From a virus (Duplodnaviria > Heunggongvirae > Uroviricota > Caudoviricetes): 23,035 nt of DNA. Location: positions 1 through 23,035 of the IMG/VR virus record IMGVR_UViG_2778261160_000005; one strand, written 5' to 3'. This document shows, piece after piece, positions 15,001-18,000 of the stretch. Made by a program: the position numbers. Positions within the stretch are counted from its first letter, which is position 1. Every line of letters starts with the position of its first letter.

Positions 15001-18000
15001 TGATGCGTAATATTCAGATGGTTCTGGAGCGTTGGGGAGCATGGGCGGCGAGTGATAGTTCTGGAGTAGACTATTCGCCTATAGCTGCTGGGTTTAAAGG
15101 GCTTCTTCCCTATACAAGCAAAACACGTCAGGCTTGTTCAGATAGTGATGCATTAATTATTGAAAGCTGTCTTGCTCTTCTTAAAAAGAGAAAACCGTAC
15201 GAGCATTCTTTGATAGTGGCTCATTACCTGTATGGCATATCGAAAAGAAAACTCGCAAGAACTCGCAAAAAAGACGAAAAATTGATACGTATAGAGATAC
15301 AGATGGCTGAAGGGTTTATTGACGGATGTATTTCAATGCTTGGAGTCAGGCTTGAAATGGATGACTTGTAAAAAGTAAAAAAATGACTAGTGCGGTCCGC
15401 AAAAAGGACGTTAGTATGTTAAGAGTGGTTACTTCGCCACATAGCTTAAAACCCGTCGGTGAACGGGTTTTTTTATGCCTAAAAAGTGGTGCTGGACGTT
15501 AAACGCTCTGGTGGTTGCTAATACGGGGCTTTCAGCTTGCTGGCTTTTTCGAAAAGAGTCATTTGGACAGGCTGTAAGGTGAAAAATAAATATTAAATAT
15601 ATGTGTTGTTATTTCTGGGTTTCATAAATAATAAAAAAACATGCGGATATTTACGGTTATTGACGCTATTTTTATTGAAAACGTCAGGATTATTCTTATT
15701 ATGGCGCAGCACCAGCGCAATGATGCGTTGGGCAGGCCCTTTAGCTCAGTGGTGAGAGCGAGCGACTCATAATCGCCAGGTCGCTGGTTCAAGTCCAGCA
15801 AGGGCCACCAGCCGTCACTAGCTCATCGGGACAGAGCATCAACCTTCTAAGTTGATTGTGCGGGGTTCAAGTCCCCGGTGGCGGTCCAGTGCCGACTTAG
15901 CTCAGTAGGTAGAGCAACTGACTTGTAATCAGTAGGTCACCAGTTCGATTCCGGTAGTCGGCACCATATGCGGGCATCGTATAATGGCTATTACCTCAGC
16001 CTTCCAAGCTGATGATGCGGGTTCGATTCCCGCTGCCCGCTCCAGAGAAACAAGCCTTACGGTATTGTGGCACTGGCGTATTTTTTATTACGTGGGGGCA
16101 GGTTGTTTTTAAATGACATTTTGCTTTCTGGCTATGATGTTAGGTGGGGTGTAGCCTCAGTGCTGATTTTTTACAACACCGGGATGGTGCAATATCGGTG
16201 GAGATTTTATATTTCCTGGCAGGGCCGATGATGCATCATCCCGGTGTTGTAAATAACACTAAAGAGGTGTTCCTCAGTGCGAGGGTGGTTTCATGGGGAA
16301 TCATAATATCTGTTGTAGGGATAGATATTTCAGGATGCACCCGACACTTCGATTTTTATTACAATAAAAATGGTTTATCTCATGCGTTGACTAACCGCCA
16401 TACTTGGCGGTTTTTTTTTATTCCTGTACCAGATTAAAAAGCATGTGAACTCTGGAAAGCTTGTGGGACAAGAACCTTGGGTAGCAATTTGCGAGAGGGG
16501 GGAGACGTAGCGTGTTTGTTGGATTTAGACCGCGGGACAAAATCCATGAAGAATAATAAGTATCTGTCTCCTTTCGGAGGCGTTCTTATATTAGTAAGCA
16601 TCATAAATGGTTTAAATTTTCAGATTAATAATAATTTTAGATAAGCTTAATTTTATTTCTTCACGACATACCCTGCGCACATCAAATAACGCCCCATAAA
16701 AGGCATCTGCGGTGTTTTTAATGGGGCGTAGTTTTTACGGGCCGCTGGTGGCCCTTTTTTATTTACAGGAGAAAAAATATGTCTGAACCCTTGTCCGGTT
16801 CCGGCACGGCTGCGGCGCTCGGCGGGGCGACGGTATTCGGGCTGTTTACCGGAACGGATTTCGGGATTGTGTTTGGTGCGTTCGCCGGGGCGTTATTTGT
16901 GGCAACGATGCCGCAGGCGCTTTCAGCCTGGAGGATTGTGGGTCACTTTGTGGTGTCTTTCATCATCGGCGTGCTGGGGGCAAAAGTGCTGGCTTCATAT
17001 CTTGCTGATAAGGCCGGATATGACAGCGCTTCGATTGATGCACTGTGCGCGGTGCTGGTGTCGGTGGTGTCAGTGAAGATTCTGTCTTTCATTCACCAGC
17101 AGGATATTGGTTCTCTGATATCCGGGCTGTTCTCCCGTCTGCGGGGAGGAGGCGGCAATGTCAGGTAACCTTCCCGGAGTGCTGAATGTGGCGTTATGTA
17201 CGGTCATCGTGCTGACGCTTTTTTTCTACCGCCGAAAAGATGCCAGGTATAAACCGCTGGTGTCATGGCTGGCCTGGCTGCTGATGCTGATATACGCGGT
17301 CGCGCCACTCAGCTATCTGTGTGGTCGTCCTCTTCCCGGTAACTGGGCGATGGTGCTGGGTAATCTGTTGTTCTGTGTGCTGGTGGTCTGGGCGCGCGGG
17401 AACGTTTCAAAAATTCTGTCGTTATTGAGAGTCTAAAAGAAATTAAAAAAGATGTTTTTTAATTTCTATGCTGGCTGAATTTAATATGGTGTTGCTGAGG
17501 AATGAATGCATGATTTATTTATCAATACATCCAGTATAAATAGCGTTATCTAAAGTTGTTATTTTTATGACGGTAACAGGTAAATTCAGAAGAATGTTAT
17601 GAAAAAATTAGTGCTGTTATTCTTTTCTATTGCTTTTTTCTCTGTGTCTTCCAGTGCAAATGAATTTTACAGAGCGGATGCCAGAAATCCTGAAGAGATT
17701 AGGCGGGCAGGAGGGTTATTATCTCGGGGGCAGAATGAAGCATATGACCGTGGAACGCCAGTAAATATAAATTTATATGATCATGCCCGTGGCACTGTAA
17801 CTGGTAATACCCGTTACGACGACGGATACGTATCTACTACAACAACACTTAGACAGGCACACTTGATAGGCCAAAATATCCTGAGCGGCTATAGCGAATA
17901 TTATATATATGTCGTTACTGCCGCTCCAAATATGTTTGATGTAAATGGCGTTTTAGGAAGATACAGTCCGCACCCTAGCGAAAATGAATTCGCAGCACTG

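Follow-up and report, generated by a model that had tools for sequence, protein, structure and literature searches.

Background

The late region of Shiga toxin (Stx) phages harbours a tRNA cassette, ileZ-argN-argO, which is said to have been noted in phage 933W by Plunkett et al. in 1999 along with the proposal that it supplies tRNAs for rare Ile and Arg codons. The present analysis deals with an array of four tRNA genes in a 23-kb stretch of DNA (IMG/VR virus record IMGVR_UViG_2778261160_000005, Caudoviricetes, positions 1 to 23,035; 23,035 nucleotides (nt), hereafter referred to as the window), which represents a lambdoid LT-II (LT2d-type) prophage of Escherichia coli. The anticodons of the array, Ile(CAU), Arg(UCU), Thr(UGU) and Gly(UCC), are also present in the eight-tRNA cluster of phage T4, where these four tRNAs read A-ending codons little used by E. 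coli and the genes are tightly packed and co-transcribed. T4 differs in being virulent, in carrying Leu, Gln, Ser and Pro tRNAs in addition and in having tRNAs that are not identical to those of the host, and its set would be best regarded as a convergent parallel.

The surroundings of the tRNA genes in the window are 100% identical to the prophage of E. coli O8:H8 strain 16F5M1D1, an outbreak strain in which the LT2d-encoding prophage has been described (PMC6988837). The tRNA genes go unmentioned in that paper and likewise in Jobling & Holmes 2012. A sequence-only reading of the window had proposed that the array serves rare codons which are frequent in the AT-rich toxin and defence genes, in parallel with the Stx-phage array. 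Our analysis favours a broader role, in which the cassette adds gene copies for the low-copy host isoacceptors Ile2, Arg(UCU), Thr(UGU) and Gly(UCC). A probability of roughly 0.55 is assigned to this reading, which is favoured by the presence of bona fide tRNAs, their position between Q and the holins, the wide distribution of the cassette, the codon bias of the prophage and a conserved promoter-like motif.

Identity of the four tRNA genes

Exactly four tRNA genes were detected by ARAGORN in the whole window, all on the plus strand (Table 1), and all four are matched by the Rfam family RF00005 at 53.7-73.8 bits (gathering score 29; E-values 3e-9 to 1e-14). They form canonical cloverleaves, have the CCA end encoded and are separated by spacers of 1-3 nt. 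The same four genes are annotated by PGAP in the near-identical prophage of strain 16F5M1D1, the one with the CAT anticodon as tRNA-Ile. The four tRNA genes are confirmed as genuine, far beyond chance; the location and the anticodons given by the sequence-only reading are exact and the predictors accept all four folds. An Rfam scan (E<=1) of positions 15300-16800 revealed nothing credible besides these four tRNAs.

The tRNA in the first slot is identical to ileZ of Stx phage 2851 at 75 of 76 positions and to K-12 ileX at 69 of 76, and is the orthologue of the Stx-phage ileZ. Its body is of the ileX/ileY kind and not that of a Met tRNA, in agreement with the earlier assignment of this tRNA to the Ile2 type. 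Its acceptor stem (GGCCCTT/AAGGGCC) provides the pairs C4-G69 and C5-G68, which we take to be the TilS determinants for lysidine formation, as reportedly defined by Ikeuchi et al. in 2005. The anticodon would be expected to receive lysidine from the host TilS and then to read AUA. The anticodon stem is shortened by an A27-C43 mismatch. In the first slot of one related array from IMG/VR (contig L077), TAT replaces CAT in the Ile2-type tRNA, a change that could make lysidine dispensable for reading AUA.

The second slot shares 65 of 77 positions with the Stx-phage argN (anticodon UCG), 55 of 77 with the host argU and 48 of 77 with argO, and is an argN-homologous scaffold carrying UCU instead of UCG. 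It has C1-G72 as the first pair, A20 in the D-loop and U73 as the discriminator, of which C1-G72 and U73 are unusual. No argO-like gene was found in the window by ARAGORN or by the identity comparison.

The Thr and Gly genes in the third and fourth slots are identical to K-12 thrU (76 of 76) and glyT (75 of 75), respectively. At positions 28-30 and 40-42 they retain the motifs CUG/CAG in the case of Thr and CAG/CUG in that of Gly. The two genes stand in the same order as in the host thrU-tyrU-glyT-thrT-tufB operon; tyrU and thrT are, however, absent from the phage, and the 225 nt between thrU and glyT in the host (an 8-nt spacer, tyrU and a 116-nt spacer) correspond to a 3-nt spacer, TAT, in the array. 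The thrU and glyT copies have brought no flanking sequence from the host with them. Exact identity of this kind accords with a simple effect on gene dosage.

Table 1. Features of the window, with positions on the 23,035-nt stretch
Feature	Position	Strand	Evidence or remarks
Integrase	1-1224		
Two-gene candidate defence system PDC-M01	1488-4087	+	PADLOC
Early genes	4431-14985		
Q antiterminator gene, 127 aa	14988-15371	+	Pfam PF06530 Phage_antitermQ, E=4e-51
tR'-like, intrinsic-terminator-like hairpin	15450-15476	+	AACCCGU-loop-ACGGGUU + U7, read from sequence; fold -12.7 kcal/mol, z=-2.4
Sigma-70 promoter-like site	15675-15702	+	TTGAAA-16 nt-TATTAT; consensus scan, 10/12 matches
Four-tRNA array	15735-16044	+	
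tRNA-Ile2 type, anticodon CAU	15735-15810	+	ARAGORN; Rfam 71.2 bits
tRNA-Arg, anticodon UCU, reads AGA/AGG	15812-15888	+	ARAGORN; Rfam 53.7 bits
tRNA-Thr, anticodon UGU	15891-15966	+	ARAGORN; Rfam 73.8 bits
tRNA-Gly, anticodon UCC	15970-16044	+	ARAGORN; Rfam 64.9 bits
Long conserved hairpin, ~22-bp main stem	16161-16285	+	Minimum free energy -74.9 kcal/mol, z=-7.5
Strong intrinsic-terminator-like site	16393-16422	+	8-bp stem + T-run; fold -13.2 kcal/mol, z=-4.9
Terminator-like site between array and holins	16565		
Weak intrinsic-terminator-like site	16739-16764	+	6-bp stem (5 G-C) + T-run; -10.8 kcal/mol, z=-1.9
Two holins	16779-17436		
LT-IIA and LT-IIB	17599-18744		
M15 endolysin	18834-19211		
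Terminase	from 21194		

Position of the array and relation to the Stx-phage cassette

The order of the genes on the late strand is the Q antiterminator, the tRNAs, the holins, LT-IIA/B and the endolysin. The array therefore sits in the leader of the late operon, the position which is also occupied by the tRNAs of the Stx phages. The late operon, tRNAs included, is regulated from upstream by Q, and PGAP names this gene product 'antiterminator Q family protein' in the prophage of strain 16F5M1D1.

In phage 2851 (FM180578), in which Q is followed by three tRNAs and stx2, the tRNAs likewise follow Q and a tR'-like terminator and precede the genes for the toxin and for lysis, and a promoter-like site lies directly upstream of them. 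With ileZ as the first gene and an argN homologue as the second gene of the window's array, the parallel with the Stx-phage array drawn earlier is real and is in fact one of homology. The description of the array as the Stx-phage set extended by Thr and Gly genes holds in so far as two genes are added, but these are exact copies of thrU and glyT, argO is missing and the argN scaffold carries UCU. The toxin genes are also placed differently, stx preceding the lysis cassette and LT-II lying inside it. Since the anticodon of the second slot differs, argO is missing and two host-derived genes are added, the array is a relative of ileZ-argN-argO and not a member of it in the strict sense.

Distribution and variants of the cassette

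Of the 5,426 complete E. coli genomes, 604 contain the 310-bp array over at least 80% of its length, and the array together with its own flanks occurs in about 7-9 genomes. The fused Thr-Gly junction was found in at least 119 IMG/VR viral contigs, a sample biased towards conserved copies as the search pattern demanded the exact junction, and among the GTDB species representatives in E. coli, Shigella flexneri, Citrobacter braakii and Enterobacter hormaechei. No more than 3 of these 5,426 genomes, in contrast, have the LT-II allele of the window, and the array is therefore not specific to the toxin; it is a general, mobile cassette of lambdoid late regions and does not accompany this toxin as an accessory. 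Though genuine, the finding is a rather ordinary one, the cassette being common in prophages and its genes being already annotated by PGAP in hundreds of genomes.

The variants were examined with ARAGORN on the fetched loci, which gave about 120 arrays including that of the window. The commonest arrangement is CAU-Lys(UUU)-Thr-Gly (51 arrays), followed by CAU-Arg(UCU)-Thr-Gly (29 arrays; 8 for the window's subtype, with the window counted), Thr-Gly only (17 arrays) and arrays with a shortened, decayed second slot (about a dozen). Copies identical to those of the host predominate, the Gly gene being glyT in 101 of 118 arrays and the Thr gene thrU in 79 of 118. The second slot is built on one scaffold with an anticodon that differs by phage, UCG in the argN of Stx phages and UCU or UUU elsewhere; the UUU version has an unusual anticodon loop, CCUUUAA (C33), followed by G39. 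The arrays are found behind at least three Q families, PF06323 (34 loci), PF06530 and PF03589, and a further cluster of arrays has a DUF1133 protein upstream with a marginal match to PF06530. The genes downstream encode DUF1327, a holin or a lysozyme.

A related arrangement is seen in phage SerU-LTIIb (KU052038), which carries LT-IIb and for which Thr, Gly and Arg tRNAs are already annotated in GenBank (tRNA stretches at 1122-1197 and 3028-3181). Here, a tRNA on the thrU scaffold with the anticodon TCT (Arg) is followed by Gly, a holin fragment and a second Thr-Gly pair, which looks like a tandem duplication with a change of anticodon.

Codon usage

The codon usage of all genes of the window was compared with that of 45 core genes of the same host strain (a 50-kb sample; 14,151 codons), enrichment being defined as the frequency in the window divided by that in the host and ranked among the 61 codons. 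The highest ranks are held by AGG (8.8-fold, rank 1), AGA (7.3-fold, rank 2), ATA (3.8-fold, rank 3), CGA (2.6-fold, rank 4) and TCA (2.4-fold, rank 5), with GGA (1.8-fold) and ACA (1.7-fold) at ranks 7 and 11. The four decoded codons rank higher than expected by chance (rank-sum P=0.0004 among the 61 codons and P=0.012 among the 14 A-ending codons); the enrichment is strong for ATA, AGA and AGG only, and the effect for ACA and GGA is weak. In the host genes each decoded codon is the least used of its family, AGA coming second to AGG. The decoded codons had been described as rare in E. coli, and this stands for ATA and AGA; GGA and ACA, at 8.4 and 7.9 per 1000, are the least used of their families and yet not truly rare.

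The sequence-only reading had further pointed to the frequency of these codons in the toxin and defence genes. The counts reveal enrichment in the cargo genes, with odds ratios of 4.9 for ATA, 13.6 for AGA, 2.4 for ACA and 2.6 for GGA in the toxin genes, and of 5.5 for ATA, 8.7 for AGA and 2.2 for GGA in PDC-M01, where the value of 1.6 for ACA is not significant (p=0.12). The observation is correct for all but ACA in the defence genes, but the enrichment spans the whole prophage and does not single out the cargo genes. The four codons taken together are also enriched in the early genes, Q, cI and the terminase genes, their density being highest in Q (127 per 1000) among all genes of the window, and the structural genes of the near-identical prophage are enriched in them too.

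These data bear on the possibility that the array is a helper which specifically supports the translation of the AT-rich LT-II and PDC-M01 genes. These are the most AT-rich genes of the window (GC 0.37-0.42; GC at third codon positions ~0.30-0.35), and the LT-II genes are both enriched in the decoded codons and placed ~1.5 kb downstream of the array on the same strand. LT-IIA and LT-IIB together, however, contain few such codons (26; 5 ATA, 6 AGA, 7 ACA and 8 GGA), Q, cI and the terminase genes are equally enriched, and the cassette lies behind many late regions devoid of a toxin. PDC-M01 is situated at the other end of the prophage and must be expressed in the lysogen. Help of this kind is considered very unlikely, and a role specific to the toxin was discarded as ruled out by the disparity between the 604 genomes with the array and the three with the LT-II allele.

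Putative transcription signals around the array

The region between Q and the array contains a tR'-like hairpin (Table 1) ~80 nt past the Q stop codon, which was read from the sequence and is not listed by the consensus terminator scan. Comparable elements of a hairpin and a T-run occur ~90-110 nt upstream of related arrays and also after Q in Stx phage 2851. The segment from the Q stop codon to the hairpin (15372-15476, plus strand) resembles the pR'-to-tR' leader of the Stx phages. In those phages a small RNA, StxS, is made from this leader. For 15372-15476, the analysis assigned no promoter.

The sigma-70 promoter-like site upstream of the array ends 32 nt before the first tRNA. The promoter scan alone is not significant (4 sites found against 3.6 expected), and the claim of a promoter is based on the comparison across loci and not on the consensus scan. 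Among the related arrays led by a CAU tRNA, 86 of 92 carry TTG(C/A)NN-16..18-TA(T/C)NAT, with 7-11 nt between the end of the motif and the first tRNA. The motif stands in 22 distinct sequence contexts and its spacers diverge; in Stx phage 2851, TTGCAA-17-TATTAT lies directly upstream of the tRNAs. This conservation suggests that the cassette has a promoter of its own, with which expression in the lysogen would be possible. The arrays from IMG/VR which lack both the CAU tRNA and the second slot, and are thus led by Thr, have a conserved hairpin-like GGTTCCGAGGG...CCCGAGGAACC directly 5' of the Thr gene, in place of the promoter-like motif (within the 60 nt 5' of Thr).

On the 3' side, a long hairpin begins ~115 nt beyond the array and is the only downstream stretch common to ~20 other arrays. 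It has a conserved loop motif, CTGGCAGGG, and belongs to no Rfam family. In an alignment of seven sequences it forms 33 pairs; compensatory changes are seen in seven of these, and G-U pairs are numerous on the plus strand. The hairpin may act in the processing or the termination of RNA within the leader of the late operon or may be a small RNA, and it may itself be part of the cassette. An open reading frame at 16144-16437, which overlaps the hairpin and has no PADLOC or Pfam hit, was not treated as a gene. Three terminator-like sites lie between the array and the holins, the last of them just before the holin gene at 16779.

A proposed dosage role for minor isoacceptors and its alternatives

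Under the dosage reading, for which we infer expression, charging and a benefit to the phage from sequence features, the four genes would be transcribed as a single precursor that starts at the promoter-like site just upstream, possibly also in the lysogen, and would reach a much higher level after induction through Q-antiterminated late transcription. With its spacers of 1-3 nt and its encoded CCA ends, the precursor could be matured by the RNase P and the 3' exonucleases of the host, and the tRNAs would then be modified and charged by the host TilS, IleRS, ArgRS, ThrRS and GlyRS. The additional tRNA would ease the decoding of AUA, AGA/AGG, GGA/GGG and ACA, which are over-represented across the AT-richer prophage in Q and in the terminase, lysis, LT-II and PDC-M01 genes, while the terminators 3' of the array would keep Q-independent transcription out of the lysis and toxin genes.

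Several observations weigh against a supply of codons as the explanation. The prophage loci with Thr and Gly tRNAs only use ATA and AGA as often as those with the Ile2 and Arg tRNAs, and the codon bias thus looks general to these prophages and not matched to the tRNAs. The loci with Arg(UCU) in the second slot do have more AGA and AGG codons than those with Lys(UUU) (15.9 against 11.2 per 1000; p about 0.02), a difference to be read with the non-independence of the loci in mind, and have fewer Lys codons. The enrichment of GGA and ACA is modest, and CGA and TCA are more enriched than these although the cassette has no tRNA for either. The second slot is decayed in ~10% of the arrays and is hence dispensable. 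The commonest relative carries Lys(UUU) and AAA is not a rare codon, so that codon supply cannot explain the whole family. Lastly, the promoter-like site of the window, a match to the consensus only, is atypically placed at 32 nt from the first tRNA.

The Lys(UUU) arrays are of particular relevance to a second explanation, in which the cassette replaces host tRNAs destroyed during lytic growth by immune nucleases or colicins (P2 Old, PARIS AriB, PrrC/RloC, colicin D), with the first two slots acting as insensitive surrogates. Phage tRNAs are known to rescue infection as nuclease-resistant variants (PMC11464382, PMC12409363, PMC12445682), and tRNA-Thr(UGU) and tRNA-Lys(UUU) are prime targets of PARIS AriB (PMC12409363). 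The Thr(UGU) tRNA of the window shares its anticodon with the host tRNA that is hit by P2 Old and PARIS, and the homologous arrays mostly have Lys(UUU) in the second slot, with C33 and with G39 at the position where a change of U39 to A abolished the AriB cleavage of E. coli tRNA-Lys (PMC12409363). The change of anticodon on a single scaffold (UCG, UCU, UUU) and the shortened anticodon stem of the first slot point in the same direction. The tRNAs of the first two slots do differ from ileX and argU. For the Lys(UUU) slot of the relatives a counter-defence role is plausible.

The array of the window offers less to this explanation, as its second slot is Arg(UCU) and not Lys, and this analysis identified no nuclease that specifically targets Ile2, Arg(UCU) or Gly(UCC). 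The rescue tRNAs known from coliphages, T5-like ones among them (PMC11464382, PMC12409363, PMC12445682), share the anticodon UGU with the window and UUU with the sister arrays but have an anticodon arm altered from that of the host, whereas the Thr tRNA of the window is identical to thrU. The Thr and Gly tRNAs, being host-identical throughout, retain the CNG motifs that are cut by P2 Old and should be cut like the host copies, and additional tRNA-ThrU of the host protected little if at all against P2 Old (PMC12445682). An anti-nuclease role of the Thr and Gly tRNAs as the primary explanation was rejected on these two grounds, and counter-defence as the main role of the window's cassette is deemed unlikely.

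A third explanation regards the cassette as a largely neutral passenger or recombination module of little translational benefit. The tRNA genes would persist because of their place at a module boundary and as stretches of homology by which lambdoid phages recombine with one another and with the host thrU and glyT. The unrelated flanks of the cassette in different phages, the existence of decayed copies of the second slot and the tandem duplication in SerU-LTIIb ([Arg on thrU scaffold]-Gly, holin1a, Thr-Gly) agree with such a module, and the identity of the Thr and Gly genes to those of the host is compatible with gene conversion. It is difficult to reconcile with a neutral passenger, however, that the cloverleaves are intact and vary very little across more than 100 arrays, that the order is conserved and the spacing tight, that a promoter-like motif is kept at a fixed distance in divergent contexts and that the decoded codons match the codon bias of the prophage. 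This explanation is assigned a slight probability. The same slight credence is given to a combination of ideas in which the cassette would be, besides a helper of the late genes, a constitutively transcribed lysogenic-conversion module with its own conserved promoter and the second slot an anticodon-switching scaffold, retargeted time and again under the pressure of tRNA-cleaving defences and colicins. The UCU tRNA of the window would then be a nuclease-insensitive surrogate of argU, and the thrU and glyT copies would raise the dosage of the tRNAs which are depleted fastest by Old- and PARIS-type nucleases.

If the dosage reading is correct, a cassette present in about one-ninth of the E. coli strains sequenced makes the cell better able to decode AUA, AGA/AGG, GGA and ACA, and the expression of horizontally acquired AT-rich genes, including LT-II and Stx-like toxins, could shift after induction. 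The practical value is modest, the concept being as old as the first Stx-phage genomes. Of more interest are the by-products of the analysis, namely the exact copies of thrU and glyT, the change of anticodon on one scaffold in the second slot, and the promoter-like motif and the covarying downstream hairpin that travel with the cassette. These provide handles on the question of codon supply versus evasion of defence for the tRNAs of temperate phages.

Other features of the prophage

PDC-M01 is a full-length PADLOC match (1488-4087, plus strand), with E-values of 1.6e-247 for the A protein and 4.8e-111 for the B protein; PADLOC gave no hit for Q or LT-II. At its C-terminus the A protein resembles the ABC-ATPases PtuA and AriA, and no Pfam domain was found in the B protein. 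A tRNA-related effector would be conceivable for PDC-M01 by analogy, because PtuAB of retron-Eco7 is reported to degrade tRNA-Tyr (PMC12673091).

In the early region, a 3.75-kb segment (9703-13457) is inverted in comparison with the prophage of strain 16F5M1D1, to which the window is elsewhere 99.5-99.9% identical. The segment encodes RusA, a PerC-like protein, a helix-turn-helix protein and a Rha/Ant-like protein, and also has an internal deletion of a methyltransferase gene. The breakpoints lie inside the ymfL-like and KilA-N genes, no inverted repeats were found at the edges of the inversion, and it could be either a real rearrangement or an assembly error. Within the same segment, adjoining the Rha/Ant-like gene, Rfam identifies a C4 antisense RNA (80.7 bits) and an isrK Hfq-binding RNA (56.6 bits) at 12536-12724 on the minus strand, and these RNAs together with the Rha/Ant-like gene constitute an antirepressor immunity module of the P1/P7 type.

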